A DNA stretch of 57,471 bases from Candidatus Dojkabacteria bacterium (GTDB lineage Bacteria > Patescibacteriota > Dojkabacteria > GCA-002793355). Location: positions 1 through 57,471 of the forward strand of contig WFZK01000010.1 in NCBI GenBank assembly GCA_015489595.1, written 5' to 3'. The notes beneath the pieces were generated by a model. It had not been told where the DNA came from, ran no database searches, and saw only the letters and a list, made by a program, of their open reading frames with translations. Below, piece by piece: positions 462 to 48,666 of this stretch; the first letter of the stretch is position 1; the number at the start of each line of letters is the position of its first letter. A program made the translations under genes and the position numbers.

Positions 462-656
462 TTAGGTGGCTCCTAGCCAGCTCTTCAATTTTCTGAAGAC
501 AATTGAAGGTTATGGCATAGTTTGAGGTTGGGCTCTTTGAAGCAACCAAGATTATAGGTAGTTTAGGCATATTTTAGCTTAGGGGCGGTAATCAGGCTGT
601 GTGCAATTCAACTCGACTGGTAAAAATTTTGTAATTTTTGGGAGGTATCATTTGGT

Positions 657-1655
657 ATGGGGGTGCCCGAAAGGTGTAGAGAATTGGGCGTAAGACAAGT
701 GTCGTTCGATCGGTTATTTCCTGGGCGGGGCGCCGAAGGCGCCCCGCCCAGGGTGTATGTGTTTGGGGATGTGAGTGTGGGCAATTTATTAGGAAGGGGG
801 CAGGAGAATTATGAAAAGAGGTCCGATAAGCGCAGTGACGGGGAGAGCAGGCCTTTAGGATTGTGGGGGGATAGACAGTATTTCCTTTCTATTGTGGGTA
901 CTCGTAGGCCATCTCTCCAAGCTACAGAATGGTTGCGAGGCATTTTTGTGCAATTGTCCGCAACTGGGATTTTGGATTATCTGGTTACTGTTAGTGGTTT
1001 TGCTTACGGCATAGATAGAAGAGCCTTTGACTTTTCTTTAAGATACGGTGTTCCTACGATAGTAGTATTGCCTTATCTTTTCCCGTATCAGGTTAAGCGG
1101 TTTAGGTCTTTTAAGAAAGTTATGGTCATATCTGAATTTGGTTGTTCTTCAGAGGCGAGTGTACAACATTGGCATTTTGTTAAGAGGAATAGGATTATAG
1201 CCATGCTAGGCAACATTACACTTGTAGTTCAAGCTCCGATAGGAAGCGGTTCTCTTATTACCGCCTCGTTTGCTGATACATACGGCAGAGAGGTTCTCTT
1301 CAGAGTGAGCGGAGCTTTAAGAGATTTAGGTGCTAGGTATTTTTTAGCTACGGGGCGCGGGAGAGTGGCTATTGATGCGTACGATATTGTGGCTGCGCTA
1401 AACGATGACCTTCGGGACAAGTTTGTGCTAGCGCTGGTACATCTTTTAAAGAGTAGGATAAGTTCTTCTAAGTGGCCTAAAGATGATGCGTTTGTTAGAG
1501 GTCTGGTTAAGACCCGTCTGGAAATAGGGAGCTTGTTTCGGCGTTGGAATTTCCCTCCTAATTTAGCCAAGAAAATTATGCTAGAATTACTCAACAGAAA
1601 TTGGGCTTACATGAATGGGAAAGCCATTTTGTTAAATTTATTTAATATTTTTTAA
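657..1655 (+). CDS. dprA: DNA processing protein DprA/Smf (start uncertain, possibly GTG at 753 or later)
   Basis: DprA Rossmann core is present: IVGTRRPS, VSGFAYGIDRRAF, VKRNRIIAMLGNITLVVQAPIGSGSLITA. The first ~95 nt overlap intergenic-repeat boxes and a GC-rich hairpin. Confidence 0.75.
   Translation: MGVPERCRELGVRQVSFDRLFPGRGAEGAPPRVYVFGDVSVGNLLGRGQENYEKRSDKRSDGESRPLGLWGDRQYFLSIVGTRRPSLQATEWLRGIFVQLSATGILDYLVTVSGFAYGIDRRAFDFSLRYGVPTIVVLPYLFPYQVKRFRSFKKVMVISEFGCSSEASVQHWHFVKRNRIIAMLGNITLVVQAPIGSGSLITASFADTYGREVLFRVSGALRDLGARYFLATGRGRVAIDAYDIVAALNDDLRDKFVLALVHLLKSRISSSKWPKDDAFVRGLVKTRLEIGSLFRRWNFPPNLAKKIMLELLNRNWAYMNGKAILLNLFNIF
721..751. repeat. GC-rich perfect hairpin (14 bp stem, GAAG loop)
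   Basis: CTGGGCGGGGCGCC-GAAG-GGCGCCCCGCCCAG read directly. Its GC content is far above the local ~40%. Confidence 0.9.
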
Positions 1656-4443: not shown

Positions 4444-5481
4444 ATGAATAAGTCTAAAAAAATCCAACTTTCCTGGCCTACCGTTGATGAGCTTTTGGAG
4501 GCGGGGGCCCATTTCGGTCATTCTGTGAAAAGGTGGCATCCAGCGTTCGCTCCCTTTATTTATAAGCGTAAAAAAGGCATCTATGTCATCAATGTTGAGA
4601 AAACCCTCGAGAAACTGAAGGAGGCAATGGAGTATTTAGCAAAAAGGTTAGCCAACGGGGCTAGCTTAATGATAGTAGGGACTAAAAAGCAGGCTTCCTC
4701 AACTGTGAGGGAACTCGGAGAAAAATATGGTGTATTCTATGTAGACTACAAATGGCCTGCAGGGCTACTTACCAATTTCGAAAGGGTAAGCCAATCTATT
4801 TCTGCACTTCCAACTCTAAAGGAACAGTATATCAAAAAGAAGTATCTTCTTACTAAGAAAGAACTTTTGGGTATTAAGAGAAAGGTTGAAAAATTAGAGA
4901 GAAGGTTCGCAGGGCTTACTTTTATAAATCAGGTCCCGGATGTGATCTTTATTATAGACATCGTTAGAGAGAAGATCGCTCTCAAAGAGGCAAGAAAGCT
5001 GGGGATTCCCGTAGTTGCTATGGTAGATAGTAACGCAGATCCGAGGTTAGTTGATTATCCTATCCCTATTAACGACGATGCCGTTAAATCGATTAGGTTG
5101 GTGCTTGACCTTTTAGGCGAGGTACTAGCGAAGTTTGGTTCAGATAAACTTACTGTCATTAGACAGAAGTTTGCTGAACATTTAAAGACCTTAGAGGAGA
5201 ATGTAGATAAGGCGTATGCGTATAAGAGAGAAGCAGAGCCAAAAGAGGAGGTAGTTGAAAAGAAAGAGGAGAAGGGAAGAGTAGTTAGAGTGACAGCATT
5301 TAGACCTATCAGCGAGTTAGGTTTAGGTCCAAGTATAGAGGAGAAGTTAAAAGCAGCTGGGATCGACTCCATAGAGGTGTTAAGAAGTAAGAGTCTGGAA
5401 GAACTCAGAGCCATTAAAGGAATCGGTGCTAAAACCGCAGAAAAGATAATTTCTAAATTAAGAGAATACAATGGCAAGTAG
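4444..5481 (+). CDS. rpsB: 30S ribosomal protein S2 with ~95 aa C-terminal helix-hairpin-helix extension
   Basis: S2 signatures AGAHFGH, WPAGLLTN and VDSNADP. SD AAAGGAGG lies 10 nt upstream of the ATG. The extra tail is LGLGPSIEEKLKAAGIDSIEVL...IKGIGAKTAEKII. Confidence 0.95.
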   Translation: MNKSKKIQLSWPTVDELLEAGAHFGHSVKRWHPAFAPFIYKRKKGIYVINVEKTLEKLKEAMEYLAKRLANGASLMIVGTKKQASSTVRELGEKYGVFYVDYKWPAGLLTNFERVSQSISALPTLKEQYIKKKYLLTKKELLGIKRKVEKLERRFAGLTFINQVPDVIFIIDIVREKIALKEARKLGIPVVAMVDSNADPRLVDYPIPINDDAVKSIRLVLDLLGEVLAKFGSDKLTVIRQKFAEHLKTLEENVDKAYAYKREAEPKEEVVEKKEEKGRVVRVTAFRPISELGLGPSIEEKLKAAGIDSIEVLRSKSLEELRAIKGIGAKTAEKIISKLREYNGK

Positions 5482-10943: not shown

Positions 10944-10980
10944 GCGTGGGAAGGGGTAAAATGGCTTACCCTTCCCACGC
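10944..10980. terminator. Hairpin between convergent hpf and the SurA-like gene (type-1 repeat relative), likely a bidirectional terminator
   Basis: GCGTGGGAAGGG(g)TAA / TTACCCTTCCCACGC with one bulge, followed by T-rich CTTTAGTATTTTATTTCTTTTT on the + strand. Confidence 0.5.
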
Positions 10981-14155: not shown

Positions 14156-15066
14156 TACTCGATAGCAGTTAGTTTAGTTAAGGCTTCTTTTAACGTCTCT
14201 ATCTCTTTATAAGAGAAATCAAGTTCCTCCTTTAGCTCTTTAGGGGTGAGGGCAAGAATTTCAGAGATGTTCTTGGGATTAATTTGCATTATCTTTTGAA
14301 AGACAGAGGCAGGAAGATGTTTTGAGAGCCATAAGAGTTTTTTGTCTTTTAGCTTGGGAGCGCTCGGAATGTAAAGAGTCGAGAGGTGCTTCCTAGATAC
14401 TTCTGTGGTTAGAATTCCATCTACGAGTTTCCAGATCTTAAATTTAGGGTACTTTTGAACTATATCTAGGCGGTGGGTTGCCATAATTATAGCTGTGCCG
14501 TTTTCGTGGATCTTTTTAAGAATTTCCATTATTAGCTCAGAGTTCTCATCATCTAGGTCTCCTGTTGGCTCATCTGCAAGAAGAATTTTGGGACGGTTAG
14601 CAACCGCTCTGGCGATGGCAACTCTTCTTTTCTCTCCACCTGAGAGCTGGGAAGGGAACATATCAGCTCTGTCTTTAAGTTCTACAAGTTCTAACAGGTA
14701 TTCTGTGATTTGTTCTCTTTGTTTTTTGGGAGTTTTAAGAATCTCCAAGACAAATTCTATATTTTCCCGAGCGGTTTTGTGTTCTAAAAGTTTATAGTCT
14801 TGGAATACTACCCCCATGTGCTGACGGTAAAGCTGCAGAAGGTTTCCTTCAAGATGGGTAATTTCAATATCGTTAAAGAAAAGTTGACCACGAGTTGGGT
14901 ATTCTTCTAGAAAAAGAATTTTAAGCAAGGTTGTTTTCCCTGCTCCTGATTTGCCGACTAGGAAGACAAAGTCATCTGGAGCAAGGGTAAATGTGGCGTT
15001 CTGGATAGGGGTTATAGTCTTGCCACCTATGTGGTAAATTTTAGCTAGATTAATGCCTTTTAACAT
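14155..15066 (-). CDS. ftsE: Cell division ATP-binding protein FtsE with ~80 aa C-terminal extension
   Basis: Walker A GKSGAGKTT, signature LSGGEKRR, Walker B ILLADEPTGDLD. The tail after about aa 222 is extra. Confidence 0.9.
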   Translation of the reverse strand: MLKGINLAKIYHIGGKTITPIQNATFTLAPDDFVFLVGKSGAGKTTLLKILFLEEYPTRGQLFFNDIEITHLEGNLLQLYRQHMGVVFQDYKLLEHKTARENIEFVLEILKTPKKQREQITEYLLELVELKDRADMFPSQLSGGEKRRVAIARAVANRPKILLADEPTGDLDDENSELIMEILKKIHENGTAIIMATHRLDIVQKYPKFKIWKLVDGILTTEVSRKHLSTLYIPSAPKLKDKKLLWLSKHLPASVFQKIMQINPKNISEILALTPKELKEELDFSYKEIETLKEALTKLTAIE

Positions 15067-15075
15067 ATTTGATCA

Positions 15076-15084
15076 ATTATAGCA
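15076..15084 (-). promoter_or_regulatory. Extended -10 promoter (TGcTATAAT) 9 nt upstream of the ftsE ATG
   Basis: The reverse complement of 15076-15084 reads TGCTATAAT. Hairpin 15095-15139 lies immediately upstream. Confidence 0.5.
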
Positions 15085-15094
15085 TGGTGATAGT

Positions 15095-15139
15095 CGGGCG
15101 GGGGCAAAATGTGGGGATACCACATTTTGCCCCCGCCCG
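15095..15139. repeat. Type-1 palindromic repeat (20 bp perfect stem, 5 nt loop)
   Basis: CGGGCGGGGGCAAAATGTGG-ggata-CCACATTTTGCCCCCGCCCG. Confidence 0.9.
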
Positions 15140-15229
15140 CAAAGTAACTTCCTTTTTCACAGTACTGCAGAGTCATCTACCAGCAGGATAATTCAAAACG
15201 GTTATGGGAATCAATTCTAGAAGGTTTAC

Positions 15230-15257
15230 GCAAAAATCGAAGAAAGCCGATTTTTGC
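15230..15257. repeat. Type-2 palindromic repeat, short copy (10 bp stem)
   Basis: GCAAAAATCG-aagaaagc-CGATTTTTGC. Confidence 0.7.
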
Positions 15258-15309
15258 CCGCGTCTCCTAAACGTGACATTCTTAATTTGGCTCGCGTTTA
15301 AGTAGAGAT

Positions 15310-16236
15310 TTATAAATGGGCGGTCTTTTTTGACTTTACTGCTCTGTAAAGGTTAGACACCAAGAAAAGGTGTAGTTTGCCTTGTTTTAGGGCTTCCTGT
15401 GCGTTAGATTGTTTTATACGCTCCCTATGATCTTTGATCTGATCCAGGGTTAGGTCGTAGGTCCTTATAATACTTTGATTTCGGGTGGCTCTTATTCTCT
15501 CTAGGGTTTTTTGTTGGGATAGTTGGGCATGTTGATAGAGTTTGGCTTTAAGGAGTTCTAAAGCGGTTTGTCTGTTTTGGTGTTGGCTTCTGTATTTACT
15601 GCTTTTTACTATTATCCCTGTGGGTTTGTGTTTCACTATGACAGCTGTTTCCGTTTTGTTTGTGTATTGGCCGCCAGGGCCTGAGGCCCTGGCGGCCTTA
15701 ATTTCCAGATCAGTCGGATTGATGTTTACGGACTCTGTCTTTATAGCTGGCAGAACTAAGACTTCGGCGTTTGAGGTGTGAACCTTTTTGTCTTTGGAGA
15801 AAGGACTGATCCTTTCCAGTCTATGACTTCCCTCTTCTTCTTTAAAGATTAGATACGCTGCGGGATCGTTGATTTTTAGAGTGCCACCTGTTATTCCGGC
15901 TGTGGGGTCGTAGGAGATATCTATTATTTCAAAAGGGACGTTTAAATTTTCCAGCGCTTTAATATAGCTCTTAAATAGCATAAGAGTAAAATCTTTTGCA
16001 TCTAGTCCACCTTGTCCTGGATGTATTTCAAGATAGGCCTGCTGTGGTTTTTCAATATTATGTGTAAAAAATTTAATGAGGGAGCTTTTTGCTAGATTCT
16101 CGTATTCTTCCGGGAATTGGGATTTGTACTCCTCAGCTTCTTTGATAAGTTCAATAACCTTAGAAAGATTATAAAGCTCTCCTAGCTCTAGAAGTTTTTT
16201 AAGGGTCATTTTTTCAATAAGTGAGTGGATAAGCAT
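15310..16236 (-). CDS. prfB: Peptide chain release factor 2 (short N-terminal domain, no frameshift site)
   Basis: SPF tripeptide (ERISPFS) and GGQ motif (RASGPGGQYTNKTETAV). Confidence 0.9.
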   Translation of the reverse strand: MLIHSLIEKMTLKKLLELGELYNLSKVIELIKEAEEYKSQFPEEYENLAKSSLIKFFTHNIEKPQQAYLEIHPGQGGLDAKDFTLMLFKSYIKALENLNVPFEIIDISYDPTAGITGGTLKINDPAAYLIFKEEEGSHRLERISPFSKDKKVHTSNAEVLVLPAIKTESVNINPTDLEIKAARASGPGGQYTNKTETAVIVKHKPTGIIVKSSKYRSQHQNRQTALELLKAKLYQHAQLSQQKTLERIRATRNQSIIRTYDLTLDQIKDHRERIKQSNAQEALKQGKLHLFLVSNLYRAVKSKKTAHL

Positions 16237-17531: not shown

Positions 17532-17719
17532 TTAGGATGGATTACAGGGGTATTCCTCTCTAGGGTGTGGATTCATAGTGGGTTGAAAGGGTGTGGGGCA
17601 AAATATCTCAATACCGCATCCCCTCTTCGCCAAAGTGGGTTGATTTTTGTAGTACTGGAAAGCTGCCTGCCGATAGAAAGATTTAAACCACCAGAAGGAT
17701 AACAATCAAGGGAGCTGGG

Positions 17720-17745
17720 GCAAAATCGTCTTTTTCGATTTTTGC
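17720..17745. repeat. Type-2 palindromic repeat, weak copy (9 bp stem with one bulged T)
   Basis: GCAAAATCG-tcttttt-CGATTTTTGC. A degenerate type-1 copy, GTGTGGGGCAAAATATC..., lies at 17591-17625. Confidence 0.55.
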
Positions 17746-17760
17746 GTGTTCCCTAGGGTG

Positions 17761-20068: not shown

Positions 20069-21250
20069 TTGAGTGGTTGGTCCGTGTACTTACGAGAGGT
20101 GCCCTCCCCTGGGGAGATTAGGGGAGGGAGAAAATCGTTTAGGGTAGGTGCGGCTGCTGTTACAGCAGCCGCACTGTATGTTATTTTCAGATCTCTTGGG
20201 AATAACTCTCTAATAGGCTATCAAATGTGGGTAGCGCGGGGAGTAGCTGCTTTGGCCATTCTTGTAGCAGGATTGGGGTTGCTTTACACAGGAATAAAAG
20301 TACATAGAGACTCCGTTGATCTAGGGAGGGCTCTCTTGTTTATTCTCTCTTTAATAGCGTGGCTAGGTAGCCTGACTATTGTGGTGTGCTGGGGACCTAT
20401 CGTCCCCTTACAGTATCCACTTTACATTATCGCCATATCAAGCATGTGGTTTAGCGGTAGATGGAGGTATCAGCAGGTTCAGCTAATGAGTTATATCCTA
20501 CTCTATCTATTCGCCGCTGTGAATATGGTACCATTGTGTGGAGCAGGACTCCCTCCTCTGGATGTCAACAACCGGGTTGTAACGAGTTTCTTAATGATAG
20601 CTATCAGTTTGTGGCTGCTATACACATCTGTTAAAGTGAGAATATCGACTCTCTTAGAGGATGAAGCAGTTTTAGACCTTACTATTTTCGGAGCCACCTC
20701 GTATTTGCTGATGCATACTCTTAAAAACTCTCTTATTGGTATTAAACATCGGCTGGAGCCTTGCATGAAGAGGGTAAAGGAACTTAAGCAGCTGTTTTTG
20801 ACAATAGATCTTTTATTTGATCGAGGCTCATCTCGTACCGCGAGTGGCTATTTAAAGGACCTTTTGCAGGTGGTAGGTGACTTTGCAAGTAAGCGGAGTG
20901 TGGCCTTGAGCTCTAAAATTGCAAAAATAGGGGCGAAGTTAGGCTATAGTCAAAGGTTAGTGTTAGTAAGTATTGTCCACAACTTGCTCTACAATGCTAT
21001 ATTGGCTAGTCCTGTTAAAGGGAGGGTGAGTTTTAGGGCTTTTTCAGTTCAGGATCGTTTGCAGCTTTCAGTATGCAACAAGGGGACGTGTCCTACCTTT
21101 TGGGAGTCGTACGGCAAGAAATTGCTGCGCGGCCTGTTTGTATCTGATGTACTGCTGTCCATAAAAGGTAAAGGAAGATTGGCACACAGCTGTAGTAAAG
21201 ATCGTGTCTATAGTGAGCTAACTTTAAACTTGAAGAAAGATGATAAATAG
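20069..21250 (+). CDS. Membrane sensor histidine-kinase-like protein (degenerate ATP-binding boxes; start uncertain)
   Basis: About 6 TM helices, H-box-like MHTLKNSLIGI and N-box-like IVHNLLYNAI. I saw no clear DxGxG or GxGxG. The TTG start is taken from the ORF track. Confidence 0.55.
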   Translation: MSGWSVYLREVPSPGEIRGGRKSFRVGAAAVTAAALYVIFRSLGNNSLIGYQMWVARGVAALAILVAGLGLLYTGIKVHRDSVDLGRALLFILSLIAWLGSLTIVVCWGPIVPLQYPLYIIAISSMWFSGRWRYQQVQLMSYILLYLFAAVNMVPLCGAGLPPLDVNNRVVTSFLMIAISLWLLYTSVKVRISTLLEDEAVLDLTIFGATSYLLMHTLKNSLIGIKHRLEPCMKRVKELKQLFLTIDLLFDRGSSRTASGYLKDLLQVVGDFASKRSVALSSKIAKIGAKLGYSQRLVLVSIVHNLLYNAILASPVKGRVSFRAFSVQDRLQLSVCNKGTCPTFWESYGKKLLRGLFVSDVLLSIKGKGRLAHSCSKDRVYSELTLNLKKDDK

Positions 21251-21845: not shown

Positions 21846-22027
21846 GGGGTACAGACAAAACTTCGTAGGCTAACCTGCCCTGGGAGATTGGTTAATAAGA
21901 GAAGACAAGGAGGGTATTACAGCGCAGAAGTTGAGCCCCCTAAGCTTATTATTCTTCTGGCTGTTTTACATTTCCCCGTTGTTTGTGAACGATTTTTCGC
22001 TATTCCGCGTAAGGCAACCTACTTTAG

Positions 22028-22070
22028 GGCGTGGGGTAAAATGTGTCATTACCACATTTTGCCCCACGCC
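22028..22070. repeat. Type-1 palindromic repeat (18 bp stem including one T.G pair)
   Basis: GGCGTGGGGTAAAATGTG-tcattac-CACATTTTGCCCCACGCC. Confidence 0.9.
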
Positions 22071-24341: not shown

Positions 24342-24505
24342 ATTCTATTATCTCTGAGCTTTCTTACAAAATTTTTGCAGTAGGGATGGGGGAACTGTAT
24401 TTTTATGGTAGTGGTCGGCGGTACGCTAGCAGGATAATTAAGCACAGACAATAGAGGGGGATTTTAGGGGGTATGTCAAAGCCGGTTTTTACGGTTTTAT
24501 CTAAG

Positions 24506-24560
24506 CTTAGGGGCGTGGGACAAAATGTCCTATTAACACGTTTTGCCCCACGCCCCTAAG
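24506..24560. repeat. Type-1 palindromic repeat (about 22 bp stem, one A/C mismatch, one T.G pair)
   Basis: CTTAGGGGCGTGGGACAAAATGT...ACACGTTTTGCCCCACGCCCCTAAG. Confidence 0.9.
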
Positions 24561-24589
24561 TTGACAGTTAAGCTTAGCCTTATTATCAT
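24561..24589 (+). promoter_or_regulatory. Promoter TTGACA, 17 nt, TATCAT; the ATG lies 5 nt after the -10 (leaderless geometry)
   Basis: The -35 abuts the last base of hairpin 24506-24560. ATG at 24595. Confidence 0.6.
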
Positions 24590-24594
24590 GTAAT

Positions 24595-26652
24595 ATGCGT
24601 GTAAAAGATGTTATTTTCTATAAGGATGTTTTGGCATCTGGATCAGAGTTCGTTACTAGCGAAGAGGTAGTGGGGCGTAAGGCGGAAAGTCTATTTAAGG
24701 CGGTGAAGTTAGGGCTCCCTGTCCCTCCTTTTTTTGTAATCACTACAAAGGTTTTTAATGACATTATAAAAGCCCTTACCACGAAGAAACAGATTAGATC
24801 TTTAGAACATTTGGTAGAGCTCTTAAATCAGATTCCTTTCCCTAAGCACGTTTTAAAATCAGTAGAGCGAGAATATTCTAAACTGTCTCTGTTGGGTAAA
24901 AGTTGGGTCGCTGTGAGATCTTCTATTTCGGCTCCTGAATATAGGAGCTTTAGCTTCAGTGGGATTTTAGACACCTATCTTAATGTAAGAGGGATCGACG
25001 AGATCGAGCTAGCAACAAAACATGTGTACGCATCTCTTTTTTCACCTACGGCTTTATCCTATATCAAGTCTAATAATATCTCCTTAAGTAAGCTTTCTTT
25101 GGCTGCTATCGTGCAGAAGATGATTACTTCCGAGATTTCAGGCCTACTGTATACCTATAATCCGGTTACGGATTCTAATGAGTATGTTACGATTGAGGCT
25201 GTTTTTGGGCTTGGAGACGTGATCGGTACAGGTGAGATCAATCCAGATGTGTATCTGGTGGATAAGGTTACTTTGGAGCTAGTAGAAAAAAGAGTGGTGC
25301 CACAGCAGTGGATGCGGACTAGAAAAGTCGGGGAGTTTACAGCGGAGGATTTTCATTCCACTAAGGTGACTCTTTCTCCGGTTTGGCAGTATGCTCAAAA
25401 GTTAAGTGATACGCAAATAAAAGAGCTTACTCAGCTGGCTATTTCTCTAGAGCAAGCTACAGGTGAGCATTATATCGTTGAATGGACATATTCCAGTGGT
25501 AGACTATATATCCTTCAGCTTAAGAAGGCTCCTATTAGTCTAGCTACTTTTTTCAAGCAAGCTCCTAAGACGCAAGAGACTCGTGCGGGTAAGAAGAAGC
25601 AGGGTACAACCCGAGGGCAGTTAATCCTTACCGGCATCCCTGTGGGGGGTGGTGTGATTGAAGGGAATGTTGTAGTTTTGACTCAGAGGATGATAAATAG
25701 CGGGCAAGCTTTAGATATAGGCAAGCACGATATATTGGTTACAGATTACTTTGACCCTCAGATTGAGAGGTATGCATTATCAGCAGGTGGTGTGATAGCC
25801 GACACGGGTGGGCCTAATGCTGATTTGGCTTTGCTATTACGTGAAAGTGGGATTCCAGCCGTGGTTTCTACCCGGGTGGCTACAAGACTTTTACGTACGG
25901 GTTCTAGGGTGCTTTTGGACGCTGATGTTGGGAGCATATACTTGTTGGAGGAGCCTAGGGAGGGGCAGGATAGACAGAATGTAAAGAAGCCTAAACGGTC
26001 GACTACTGAGCCGGTCTCAGTTCATAAGCCACAGCCTTATCCTATTGATGTGTATTTACCTCTGCCTGAGTGGGGGGCGTATTTTGTAAGACTAGGGGAG
26101 TATCCTTCGTTAAAGTGGGCTGAATACGACAGCGTGTTTGTAGAGATGGATAAAACAGACCTCCGGAAGCGAATTGGTTTTATAAAAAGGATAAAAGATT
26201 CTGGGGTCTCTACCCTTGTGGTAGGTGTACATTCTGATGACGCAAAGCAGTTCATAGAACTTAAGAAGAAGCTAACCAGTCACAAGATTATTAGAAGTTC
26301 TAGGGTTAAAATAGTCCCTGTTCTTGCTACCATTGCTCAGCTTTGGAGGATAGAAAGGTATCTGAAGTCTTTCGTAGATGGAGTGGTTCTTGATCTTCTA
26401 AAGATATACCTCGCTTATGGTGGGACTACATTTGATCCTAAAGATTCGAATTTCCGTGATTTTCTGGCTCCTCATGTAGAAAAGGTTAAAAAGGAAAAGT
26501 TTACTATTATGGGGGCTTACATAGATAAGCTGGACATCGCAGTATCTAAGCTTATAAAGCTAGGCTTTAATCAGCTAGTTGTGGTTGACTCAGAGTCCTC
26601 AGTGGAGAAGATAGAAGATCTTAGGGATAAGCTTTCTCGGGTAGTATTGTAA
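24595..26652 (+). CDS. PEP-synthase/PPDK-like protein (ATP-grasp N-domain plus swivel domain lacking the phosphohistidine)
   Basis: PPDK_N pattern GRKAESLFKAVKLGLPVPPFFVI and swivel-domain pattern GGPNADLALLLRESGIPAVV, where TSH is expected. Confidence 0.7.
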   Translation: MRVKDVIFYKDVLASGSEFVTSEEVVGRKAESLFKAVKLGLPVPPFFVITTKVFNDIIKALTTKKQIRSLEHLVELLNQIPFPKHVLKSVEREYSKLSLLGKSWVAVRSSISAPEYRSFSFSGILDTYLNVRGIDEIELATKHVYASLFSPTALSYIKSNNISLSKLSLAAIVQKMITSEISGLLYTYNPVTDSNEYVTIEAVFGLGDVIGTGEINPDVYLVDKVTLELVEKRVVPQQWMRTRKVGEFTAEDFHSTKVTLSPVWQYAQKLSDTQIKELTQLAISLEQATGEHYIVEWTYSSGRLYILQLKKAPISLATFFKQAPKTQETRAGKKKQGTTRGQLILTGIPVGGGVIEGNVVVLTQRMINSGQALDIGKHDILVTDYFDPQIERYALSAGGVIADTGGPNADLALLLRESGIPAVVSTRVATRLLRTGSRVLLDADVGSIYLLEEPREGQDRQNVKKPKRSTTEPVSVHKPQPYPIDVYLPLPEWGAYFVRLGEYPSLKWAEYDSVFVEMDKTDLRKRIGFIKRIKDSGVSTLVVGVHSDDAKQFIELKKKLTSHKIIRSSRVKIVPVLATIAQLWRIERYLKSFVDGVVLDLLKIYLAYGGTTFDPKDSNFRDFLAPHVEKVKKEKFTIMGAYIDKLDIAVSKLIKLGFNQLVVVDSESSVEKIEDLRDKLSRVVL

Positions 26653-37556: not shown

Positions 37557-37579
37557 CAGAAGTATTTGTAAGTTATTTG

Positions 37580-37620
37580 GGCGTAGGGCAAGTGTGGGAG
37601 CTTGCATTTTGTCTTACGCT
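37580..37620. repeat. Type-1 palindromic repeat, degenerate copy that pairs only if G.T(U) wobbles are allowed
   Basis: GGCGTAGGGCAAG... versus ...CATTTTGTCTTACGCT gives about 13 pairs, four of them G.T on the + strand. Confidence 0.6.
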
Positions 37621-37703
37621 CTAAGATAAGTTTCTTCTCCGTGGTAGTGGGGGTGCCTATCCGTGAGATCATTTAGAGCAGTAAGGAGAAGAGCAATTTT
37701 AAG

Positions 37704-37748
37704 GGGGACTTACGCAAAATCGACGTAGTCGATTTTGCGTAAGTCCCC
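37704..37748. repeat. Type-2 palindromic repeat (21 bp perfect stem, 3 nt loop)
   Basis: GGGGACTTACGCAAAATCGAC-gta-GTCGATTTTGCGTAAGTCCCC. Confidence 0.9.
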
Positions 37749-37755
37749 TTAAAGT

Positions 37756-45979: not shown

Positions 45980-46114
45980 TTTCTATTTTAGCAATACTCT
46001 CTGATGGGTTCATCTCCAGGAGGATTGGGGGATAGAAAGGATACTCAGAACTAACTGATTGAAGTGGGAGCCGTAGGACTTCTAATCAGGACGTAGTTTA
46101 AAGGTTGAGACGAA

Positions 46115-46161
46115 GGGTCGTGGGGCAAAATGCGTCAATCTCGCATTTTGCCCCACGACCC
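46115..46161. repeat. Type-1 palindromic repeat (20 bp perfect stem, 7 nt loop)
   Basis: GGGTCGTGGGGCAAAATGCG-tcaatct-CGCATTTTGCCCCACGACCC. Confidence 0.9.
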
Positions 46162-46170
46162 GAATCCCCC

Positions 46171-46199
46171 TTGGATTGAGAGATTCTTTTCTGTATAAT
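46171..46199 (+). promoter_or_regulatory. Promoter TTGGAT, 17 nt, TATAAT driving tRNA-Glu (and probably lepB)
   Basis: Hexamers read directly. The tRNA 5' end lies 14 nt after the -10. Hairpin 46115-46161 ends 9 nt before the -35. Confidence 0.6.
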
Positions 46200-46212
46200 A
46201 GGGAAGCTTTGG

Positions 46213-48554: not shown

Positions 48555-48583
48555 GTATACTTTGTGTTCGACTTCTTTACAAG

Positions 48584-48637
48584 TTAGGGGGCTGTGCCAA
48601 AAATCGGAAAGTCTCGATTTTTGGCACAGCCCCCTAA
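48584..48637. repeat. Type-2 palindromic repeat (23 bp perfect stem, 8 nt loop)
   Basis: TTAGGGGGCTGTGCCAAAAATCG-gaaagtct-CGATTTTTGGCACAGCCCCCTAA. Confidence 0.9.
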
Positions 48638-48666
48638 TTGCTTTACCTCCCTTTGTTTATCATCCC

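Follow-up and report, generated by a model that had tools for sequence, protein, structure and literature searches.

Repetitive extragenic palindromic (REP) units of Enterobacteria and Pseudomonas are multi-copy palindromes of two types, which characteristic long and short linkers join into bacterial interspersed mosaic elements (BIMEs); the number of units at a given site varies between strains, and they lie at operon boundaries, where REP-type hairpins are known to stabilise or terminate transcripts. Miniature inverted-repeat transposable elements (MITEs), such as Correia/NEMIS in Neisseria and RUP/BOX in pneumococcus, are intergenic, 100-200 nt long, strain-variable, found in either orientation and near promoters, and have stable RNA folds. 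Genomes of the Candidate Phyla Radiation (CPR, or Patescibacteria) are regarded as streamlined and repeat-poor. Here we describe a family of long intergenic palindromes in a 57,471-nt stretch of DNA from Candidatus Dojkabacteria bacterium (assembly GCA_015489595.1, contig WFZK01000010.1, positions 1 to 57,471; hereafter the window). We consider it probable that they form a lineage-specific family of non-coding mosaic repeats, akin to REPs and BIMEs or to hairpin-forming REP doublets (REPINs) and MITEs, which turns over by recombination and template switching at its palindromes.

Like REPs and BIMEs, the family consists of multi-copy extragenic palindromic units of two types, joined into mosaic clusters by a ~90-nt spacer (of two families) or a short linker of ~8 nt; it is located at operon boundaries, and its unit number at the same site differs between relatives. 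REP stems are typically 6-9 bp long, up to 12-13 bp, in units of 20-40 bp (PMC3733652), whereas the stems of the present family measure 18-28 bp and are nearly perfect. In most REPs one end of the palindrome bears an unpaired tag, GTAG (or CGTC), and REPs prefer unidirectional and convergent contexts (PMC3733652); the hairpins described here end in TTAGGGG/CCCCTAA instead, conserve an inner AT-rich core and an outer GGGG clamp around a variable middle, and are found between divergent genes at three of eight loci. The same survey places tagged REPs in eight phyla, and the host of the present family, a lineage of Patescibacteria, is outside those eight (PMC3733652). In REPINs, two inverted copies of ~20 nt form a long hairpin, which is the unit of evolution (PMC3116915). 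Our family resembles them in having hairpins that could form in single-stranded DNA or RNA and members that differ by compensated changes, but its arms are not themselves small palindromes, its loops are just 3-10 nt long, and no gene for a REP-associated tyrosine transposase (RAYT) was found in the ~70 kb examined. With Correia/NEMIS and RUP/BOX the family shares the intergenic site, the 100-200 nt size, presence or absence between relatives, either orientation, promoter proximity and a stable predicted RNA structure; it differs from them in having no clear terminal inverted repeats or fixed target duplication, in hairpins that also stand alone, and in that no outward promoter was detected inside the element. 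A search of the full-text literature gave no description of REP or MITE elements in CPR or Dojkabacteria.

Long palindromes with shared cores

Eight clear palindromes, with stems of 10-25 bp and cores GGGGCAAAATG or GCAAAA(A)TCG, are present in the window (Table 1). A type 1 unit follows the pattern (TTA)GGGCGTGGGGCAAAATGTG-loop-complement and a type 2 unit the pattern TTAGGGG-variable-GCAAAA(A)TCG-loop-complement; in both, the AT-rich centre is conserved, the middle is variable and the outer clamp is G-rich. When the copies of related genomes are included, the long stems measure 18-28 bp, in units of 43-58 nt with loops of 3-10 nt. Ten dinucleotide shuffles of the window gave 0-7 hairpins with no more than 13 matched pairs, against 17-24 pairs in the real palindromes. 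The sequence GGGGCAAAATG, with at most one mismatch, occurs 14 times against 1.1 ± 1.0 times in shuffled sequence (none of 100 shuffles reaches 14), and it is the most over-represented 11-mer of the window (6 occurrences, 0.03 expected). The type 2 core by itself is weakly enriched (11 versus 4.1 ± 2.2; one of 100 shuffles reaches 11), and type 2 membership therefore rests on the palindrome context. An earlier note on this DNA had described long palindromes with shared cores, and this description was borne out, as both stem length and the GGGGCAAAATG count lie far above those of dinucleotide shuffles.

A covariance model of the hairpin was built from 20 copies, among them the eight of the window. 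It recovers these eight, with no hit within genes; the hairpin at 37575-37625 is marginal (E = 0.2), while 10944-10980, 17591-17625 and 683-701 are not recovered. The family of at least 11 loci proposed in the earlier note is thus reduced to eight clear copies, to which the decayed type 1 hairpins at 17591-17625 and 37580-37620 can be added through their position in a composite (see below) and not through their own fold. The hairpin at 10944-10980, whose orthologue in a relative has a different stem, is probably a separate, conventional terminator-like structure, and 683-701 is probably an arm-like relic within a separately conserved block, so that neither is likely to belong to the family.

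The survey for family copies covered ~70 kb (69.6 kb) of one scaffold and gave 12 hairpin modules, six of type 1 and six of type 2 with decayed copies included, all of them intergenic and none within a gene. Seven of the 11 intergenic regions of at least 130 nt contain a family module. As RNA, the six long hairpins are predicted to fold with -33 to -47 kcal/mol and z-scores of -7.7 to -11.8. A search of Rfam returned only tRNAs at the gathering threshold, and relaxed E-values gave just spurious matches to miRNA-type hairpins.

Two other kinds of dispersed sequence were considered and dropped. With at most one mismatch, GGGGCAAAATG has three matches within genes (32445, 38673 and 43259) and one in the non-member hairpin at 10953, where about one is expected; the core is not dispersed through coding DNA in the manner of a DNA uptake sequence (DUS/USS). 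Nor do the copies form an array of clustered regularly interspaced short palindromic repeats (CRISPR), as the earlier note had recognised: they are inverted repeats scattered over 48 kb.

Two hairpin types as the ends of one composite repeat

The palindromes had been described as two dispersed types. Both hairpin types are real, but they are not separate families, since they form the opposite ends of one composite repeat of ~170 nt (~165-185 nt), in which a type 1 hairpin is followed by a spacer of ~90 nt and a type 2 hairpin. The spacing from type 1 to type 2 is 124-135 nt in three cases (15095/15230, 17591/17720 and 37580/37704), and the ~90 nt between the hairpins can be aligned, with the consensus ..AAAGTAGGTTGCTTTTT..GTAGTGG..AGGATAATT..CAATTTTAGGGGG... 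An nhmmer profile of these three composites (A, B and C) detects the unit in reverse orientation on the minus strand (21933-22070, E = 8.8e-11), part of it at 46113-46206, and a spacer with a decayed type 2 hairpin at 24399-24496, just ahead of the hairpin at 24506. In all, five elements of the window are composite or partial, four in plus orientation (A, B, C and D) and one in minus orientation (F), and two hairpins stand alone (46115 and 48584). Family units are found in both orientations, also as solo hairpins and in short arrays, and there are at least two unrelated spacer families. Element D is made up of a spacer box (24397-24469), a decayed type 2 hairpin (~24470-24497) and the type 1 hairpin (24506-24560). 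At site B, the type 2 hairpin that is imperfect in the window is a perfect stem of 22-23 bp in the relatives.

Table 1. Palindromes, repeat elements and promoter-like sites of the window, and repeats of unrelated genomes that have the same core
Feature	Position	Strand	Details
Type 1 palindrome	15095-15139		20/20 bp, loop 5
Type 1 palindrome	22028-22070		17/18 bp
Type 1 palindrome	24506-24560		21/23 bp
Type 1 palindrome	46115-46161		20/20 bp, loop 7
Type 2 palindrome	37702-37750		22/23 bp, loop 3
Type 2 palindrome	48582-48639		24/25 bp, loop 8
Short type 2 palindrome	15230-15257		10/10 bp
Imperfect type 2 palindrome	17707-17756		core 17720-17745
Composite A	15095-15262	+	prfB (-)/ftsE (-) gap; type 1 15095-15139, spacer 15140-15229, type 2 15230-15257; predicted RNA folding energy -44.9 kcal/mol
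Composite B	17591-17756	+	416-aa gene (+)/RuBisCO (+) gap; decayed type 1 17591-17625, spacer, imperfect type 2 17707-17756; 34.3 bits
Composite F, reversed	21885-22070	-	201-aa gene/518-aa gene gap; type 1 22028-22070, spacer ~21940-22027
Element D	24397-24560	+	between divergent 225-aa gene (-) and phosphoenolpyruvate (PEP)-synthase-like gene (+)
Composite C	37580-37753	+	AI-2E transporter gene (+)/hrcA (+) gap; decayed type 1 37580-37620, spacer, type 2 37702-37750
Solo type 1 hairpin G	46115-46161		11 nt upstream of tRNA-Glu promoter (TTGGAT-17-TATAAT); adjoins decayed glycoside hydrolase family 1 (GH1) pseudogene; predicted folding energy -42 kcal/mol
Solo type 2 hairpin S	48582-48639		between -35 box of divergent DeoR-like gene promoter (48582-48554, minus) and tRNA-Ser gene; 63 bits; predicted folding energy -46.9 kcal/mol
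Doubtful relative	650-752	+	box-like and type 1-arm-like relic 650-701, then unrelated GC-rich perfect hairpin 720-752 (15/15 bp); hairpin just 21 bits
Likely non-member	10944-10980		12-13 bp hairpin between convergent genes, GGGGTAAAATG in loop and arm, T-rich run after; no covariance-model match at E <= 1
Promoter-like site	24561 (to 24589)	+	TTGACA-17-TATCAT; directly abuts hairpin of element D
Promoter-like site	22080		TTTACT-17-TATAAT
Promoter-like site	37756		TTGGCA-17-TAAAAT
Promoter-like site	17761		TTTACT-18-TATAAT
Promoter-like site	48582	-	TTGTAA-17-TATACT
Unrelated repeats, same core (Ca. Amphrikana amoebophyrae)			loci L008, L010, L013, L022, L035, L036, L038, L046
Unrelated repeats, same core (Leptolyngbyaceae metagenome-assembled genome)			loci L016, L023, L024, L027, L033, L043, L048, L050
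Unrelated repeats, same core (Pirellulaceae metagenome-assembled genome)			loci L020, L029, L031

Structural turnover between relatives

The window corresponds to bases 3713-61183 of a 96.8-kb metagenome scaffold (ENA ERZ23495249, REYS20-1_SAMN12239311 scaffold_88), and its host is represented by a metagenome-assembled genome (MAG) from a hydrothermal vent. The NCBI MAG GCA_027052685.1 and Logan contigs contain the identical sequence, and the repeats cannot therefore be put down to an error in a single assembly. The genes are the housekeeping set of a small divergent genome (topA, dprA, recA, prfB, ftsEX, a type III RuBisCO and several tRNAs), with a G+C content of ~41%; the closest named relatives of TopA belong to Candidatus Dojkabacteria (46-47%) and Peregrinibacteria (45%), which places the host in the Patescibacteria/CPR. 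The GC skew is above zero in all 2-kb bins (0.07-0.28) of the whole window and the genes lie mostly on the plus strand, from which we conclude that the window is on one replichore with strong strand asymmetry. Syntenic relatives were reached through protein clusters in other vent metagenomes (JOHN19-1 SAMN10217872, here J72; SAMN10217877, here J77; MAG GCA_027002255.1). Their DNA is 88.5-89.7% identical to the window (~73% at four-fold degenerate sites), while J72 and J77 are 96.8-98.4% (~97.5%) identical to each other. A more distant syntenic comparison was made with the sister genus GCA_054035635.1, whose PrfB is 48% identical and whose G+C content is 32%.

The relatives are syntenic with the window, yet their structure differs at nearly every element site. 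Between uvrD and dprA, J72 and J77 carry a complete composite of 176 nt (28-bp type 1 stem, second spacer family, 25-bp type 2 stem) that the window does not have; it is flanked by a CTT(T)CC direct repeat of 4-6 bp, which overlaps the hairpin end. After recA, before tRNA-Leu, J72 alone carries an extra ~150 nt, made up of a piece of the spacer and a 22-bp type 2 hairpin; this insertion, too, is missing from the window, and it is flanked by the imperfect 10-bp direct repeat GTTCAGA[A/T]GA. At site D (24560) the relatives carry 127 nt more, a spacer and a type 2 hairpin bounded by CCTAAG repeats, which makes two tandem composites there, and at site S (48584) J72 is ~190 nt longer by half a type 2 hairpin, a type 1 hairpin and a spacer. 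Element F has lost its type 2 hairpin in the window by a 42-nt deletion near 21935 and kept it in a relative; the deletions of 127, ~190 and 42 nt all have hairpin arms as their borders. In J72 and J77, a 32-nt deletion has shortened the type 1 hairpin of element C, whose spacer and type 2 hairpin are replaced or different there. Overall, the unit number varies between relatives at sites D, S, T, U and R.

In addition to gain and loss, elements have been exchanged between the relatives. The element at site A of J72 is a paralogue of element F and not the orthologue of the window's element A: its local alignment scores are 105 against J72's own F, 92 against F of the window and 49 against A of the window; with the opposite strand of the window's F it shares 85.5% identity along 131 nt. 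Upstream of the tRNA-Glu promoter, a type 1 hairpin in the window and a type 2 hairpin in J72 occupy the same spot. At the start of the scaffold lies a hairpin recombined from two J72 hairpins, with the junction in their cores. Between J72 and J77 the identity of elements is uneven: A and U show the background value of ~97%, T 91.5%, and C ~73% with near-identical flanks, which fits episodic replacement.

In the sister genus, the prfB-ftsE gap is 11 nt and the gap between a 433-aa gene and RuBisCO is 21 nt, as compared with 243 and 250-286 nt in the window, and no family hairpins were found in 21 kb. This genome (locus L069; 10924-10936 and 8632-8654) has the same gene order, almost no intergenic DNA and no long hairpins in the same 21 kb. 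The gain of the repeats and the nine-point difference in G+C content both postdate the split of the two genera.

A further difference between the relatives concerns the segment 44759-46100 of the window, in which ~800 nt of non-coding DNA come after a C-terminal GH1 beta-glucosidase fragment, apparently the remains of a pseudogene in decay. J72 lacks this segment entirely (locus L063, 16800-17070), and its tRNA-Leu is followed directly by repeat elements and tRNA-Glu.

Maintenance of complementary arms

The earlier note had proposed that pairing is maintained while the stem sequence varies, and this is seen in 47 distinct copies from four related genomes, where 16 of 23 stem pairs are changed on both sides. 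The covariation score is 0.336, as compared with 0.111 in shuffles (none of 500 reaches it) and at most 0.12 for slid partners; since the model guided the alignment and every palindrome enters it with both strands, these figures lean towards structure. The raw stems consist of 18-28 almost purely Watson-Crick pairs around differing middles (CGTGG, AGTGA, CTCAC, CTGCG, CAGGG, CTGTG and ACTTAC).

The comparison of J72 and J77 indicates how such complementarity can arise. In hairpin C2 the 10-nt loop of one strain is the exact reverse complement of that of the other (GTGAAAAATA versus TATTTTTCAC; 10/10 positions agree inverted and 0/10 direct), and the stem shows one compensated change, T:A to G:C. 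The 3-nt loop of hairpin U1 is also flipped, which one substitution explains equally well. In quasi-palindromes, template switching or recombination from arm to arm is known to invert the loop between unchanged arms and to copy changes from one arm to the other. On the basis of the loop inversion and this known process, we think that the exact complementarity of the arms is at least partly a by-product of DNA-level processes, and it is not proof of selection for an RNA fold.

The two strands are not equivalent. Among the stem positions that are not Watson-Crick pairs, seven are G-T and one is A-C on the plus strand, and the predicted RNA fold of the plus strand is the more stable one in 14 of 20 copies. 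Copy T1, the one informative copy whose neighbouring genes are on the minus strand, shows the same plus-strand bias; given this and the strong GC skew, a C-to-T mutational bias explains the asymmetry as well as RNA-level selection does.

Two shorter palindromes occur within genes. A perfect, G+C-rich palindrome of 13 bp, GGCCGCCAGGGCC tga GGCCCTGGCGGCC, at 15669-15697 in prfB (minus strand) covers the codons of the SGPGGQ motif; its arms are identical in both relatives and its loop differs (tga versus tcc). A perfect hairpin of 12 bp, GTGCGGCTGCTG tta CAGCAGCCGCAC, is located at 20148-20174 in the Ala-rich N-terminal coding part of a 393-aa open reading frame, and in a relative one of its pairs has changed from T:A to C:G, a compensated substitution, and the loop is different.

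A probable lineage-specific family of mosaic repeats

The family has a composite architecture, is restricted to transcription-unit boundaries, occurs in both orientations and shows compensated variation; its elements are gained, lost, truncated and exchanged between relatives, a loop has been inverted, and they are absent from the syntenic sister genus. Among the candidates named in the earlier note, a REP- or MITE-like element is supported by the presence/absence and rearrangement polymorphism in the relatives and the elements missing in the sister genus. Turnover of such mosaic repeats would take place mainly at the palindromes and at the level of DNA. Different hairpins may exchange parts when their shared cores recombine. 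Within one hairpin, a template switch from arm to arm, or recombination of the arms, would flip the loop, copy changes onto the other arm and keep the arms complementary; whole elements may occasionally be inserted by an enzyme. Once transcribed, the very stable hairpins, which lie a short way upstream of the next promoter, probably have a role as 3'-end structures, terminators or insulators, and such a function could be the reason why they are tolerated or kept at boundaries. A boundary role of this kind, as RNA 3'-end structure, terminator or insulator, is plausible.

Several points weigh against this explanation. The direct repeats around the two insertions do not agree, that of the recA site being imperfect and ~10 bp long and that of the uvrD site 4-6 bp, and the polymorphisms could therefore in principle all be due to recombination or deletion and not to transposition. 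Among the genes of the ~70 kb formed by the window and its flanks, no transposase, RAYT (Y1, PF01797) or other mobilising gene was found with NCBIfam, Pfam and precomputed Pfam hits; the earlier note had likewise seen no transposase nearby, and its suggestion to look for RAYT/TnpA(REP)-like genes led to none. The GTAG/CGTC tags that define most REPs are absent from the hairpins: GTAG/CTAC lies within 10 nt of 3 of 15 hairpins, all of one subfamily and not adjacent to the stem, and GACG is found in one. The copy number is that of 70 kb of a single scaffold. As neutral sites of the window and its main relatives are ~73% identical, part of the difference between orthologous elements may be ordinary drift. 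The excess of G-T mispairs and the fold asymmetry could reflect RNA-level selection instead of DNA-level processes, although the strong GC skew fits as well, and the terminator or insulator role is a putative one.

A bolder version, which we regard as rather doubtful, would make the hairpin modules a self-symmetrising mobile 'boundary cassette' that is now the standard terminator or insulator between the transcription units of an ultra-small CPR genome, more than tolerated junk, and is moved by a putative hairpin-specific enzyme, either of the HUH/Y1-like kind or new. If true, no REP-like host-element system would have been described in Patescibacteria before this one, and template switching from arm to arm would be what keeps its palindromes perfect.

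As mosaic repeats, the palindromes would leave general knowledge of bacterial repeats unchanged and form a new addition to the repeats of the REP/BIME type. A single family accounts for most of the long intergenic spacers here and for the main structural difference between strains that are 97.5% identical. It might be used as a strain-typing handle for an uncultured vent lineage, or as a natural case for studying palindrome maintenance, with its loop inversion and compensated arm changes, and it is a testable candidate for the delimitation of transcription units where classical terminators are not evident.

Gene ends, promoters and terminators

We consider it unlikely that the hairpins are primarily the terminators of this lineage, U-tract-free, bidirectional and suited to a thermophile, with cores shared through duplication of useful terminators and not through selfish spread. 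Their position gives this idea some appeal: five of the eight loci come after the end of a gene in a tandem arrangement, and five hairpins stop 1-16 nt from the -35 boxes of the window's best promoter-like sites (Table 1), that is, just before the next promoter. Like intrinsic terminators, they are G+C-rich stem-loops at the ends of transcription units, of extreme predicted stability, and the outer type 2 stem (GGGGCTG...CAGCCCC) is similar to common terminator stems, for example that of locus L127. Canonical terminators, consisting of a hairpin and a T-run, are not enriched in the window (26 versus 18 ± 4.3 and 20 versus 16.3 ± 3.8), so something else must end the transcripts.

However, the remaining three loci (24506, 46115 and 48584) lie between divergently oriented features, so that the family is not confined to positions downstream of genes. 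No T-run follows the long stems, and a terminator scan of the window lists just 48587-48634, with the weak tail TAATTGCTTT; the statement of the earlier note that some copies cannot be ordinary terminators therefore stands. Compared with intrinsic terminators, the stems are two to three times longer and have shared cores and a shared spacer. Two hairpins with a conserved 90-nt spacer exceed the needs of a terminator, the elements occur in either orientation, and whole elements are present or absent between relatives while the flanking genes are unchanged. Moreover, the sister genus copes with gaps of 11-21 nt at the same sites.

Mobility and copies beyond the window

A classical MITE would be a deletion derivative of an insertion sequence (IS) of the DDE type, mobilised in trans; the outer arms of type 1 and type 2 would be its terminal inverted repeats, and target-site duplications would flank it. 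The presence or absence of whole units of 150-176 nt at conserved sites (uvrD-dprA and recA-tRNA-Leu, together with the sister-genus gaps at A and B) agrees with this origin, as does the imperfect repeat GTTCAGA[A/T]GA around the recA-site insertion. The ends of the composite also resemble each other in inverted orientation, but the type 1 outer arm shares just 9-15 of 22 nt with the reverse complement of the type 2 outer arm, which is a weak similarity, and the flanking repeat at the uvrD site is inconsistent with that at the recA site. Since the modules also occur solo and arrayed, most polymorphisms are bordered by hairpin arms and not by element ends, and no parent IS or transposase was seen among the genes examined in ~70 kb, we judge such an origin quite improbable.

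Copies of the mosaic repeats outside this lineage were sought by pattern. A scan of 185,579 species genomes for GGGGCAAAATG-N5-20-CATTTTGCCCC gave 50 loci in unrelated taxa, none from this lineage and no true members; by a rough estimate, made with no control motif, this is about what any 11-mer would give among ~10^8 natural hairpins. Three unrelated genomes have their own multi-copy palindromic repeats with the same GGGGCAAAATG...CATTTTGCCCC core (Table 1). Their flanks are conserved, and they are therefore separate repeat families. In JGI metagenomes the specific type 1 pattern had no match, while a looser type 2 pattern had 68, of which the only one to pass the covariance model (L127) is an ordinary terminator with a T-tail.

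We consider it very unlikely that the composite is a gene for a small RNA, or a structured RNA regulating in cis, in which the spacer would form the body and a hairpin the terminator. A conserved spacer flanked by two hairpins could suggest it, some copies precede genes on the same strand (B before RuBisCO, C before hrcA), and decay has been G-U-compatible on the plus strand, as in the decayed type 1 hairpin of element C (37580-37620), which can pair as RNA only via G-U on that strand. The structured-RNA candidate of the earlier note is not supported, as the spacer has no conserved fold on either strand (consensus folds of -1.65 and -1.08 kcal/mol, essentially just the hairpin) and no Rfam match. 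No promoter-like site is found within the elements, the good ones being just outside; the copies are in both orientations relative to neighbouring genes, and the spacers belong to at least two unrelated families.

Operators of a global DNA-binding protein were a further candidate of the earlier note; such a protein would be dimeric and control the adjacent promoters. This is the least credible alternative and is not supported. Hairpins do lie 1-16 nt upstream of -35 boxes, and the cores GCAAAAT/ATTTTGC resemble conserved half-sites. On inspection of the sequence, however, the half-sites are 10 to 13 nt apart, depending on the length of loop and inner stem; the arms are exact complements over 20-28 bp, across non-conserved positions, which a duplex-binding protein does not need, and the sites are dispensable between relatives. 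The specific operator of HrcA, CIRCE (controlling inverted repeat of chaperone expression), was dropped as well, as the palindrome upstream of hrcA is not CIRCE and the window contains no CIRCE site.

Other features of the window

Some promoter-like -10 boxes are separated from a start codon by just 5-9 nt. The ATG of ftsE has TGcTATAAT 9 nt ahead of it (15064-15085), and that of the PEP-synthase-like gene has TATCAT at a distance of 5 nt (24584-24597). Such short distances suggest that the lineage may have leaderless mRNAs.

The block at ~630-780 (~150 nt), which includes the hairpin CCTGGGCGGGGCGCC gaa GGCGCCCCGCCCAGG (720-752), is ~97% identical to a relative, as compared with ~73% at neutral sites. 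It is located inside the annotated 5' end of dprA, the NCBI/ENA gene start falling within it, and the real start of dprA is probably near 835. The block has no Rfam match and a predicted fold of -59.8 kcal/mol (z = -3.4), and remnants of the spacer and of the type 1 arm of the repeat are present in it; probably it represents a small RNA or leader that has so far escaped recognition. Finally, the gene for ribosomal protein S2 (4444-5481) encodes a product of 345 aa with extra Pfam matches to a helix-hairpin-helix and to an RNA-polymerase-alpha-CTD (C-terminal domain)-like domain, an unusual fusion that is kept in the relatives.

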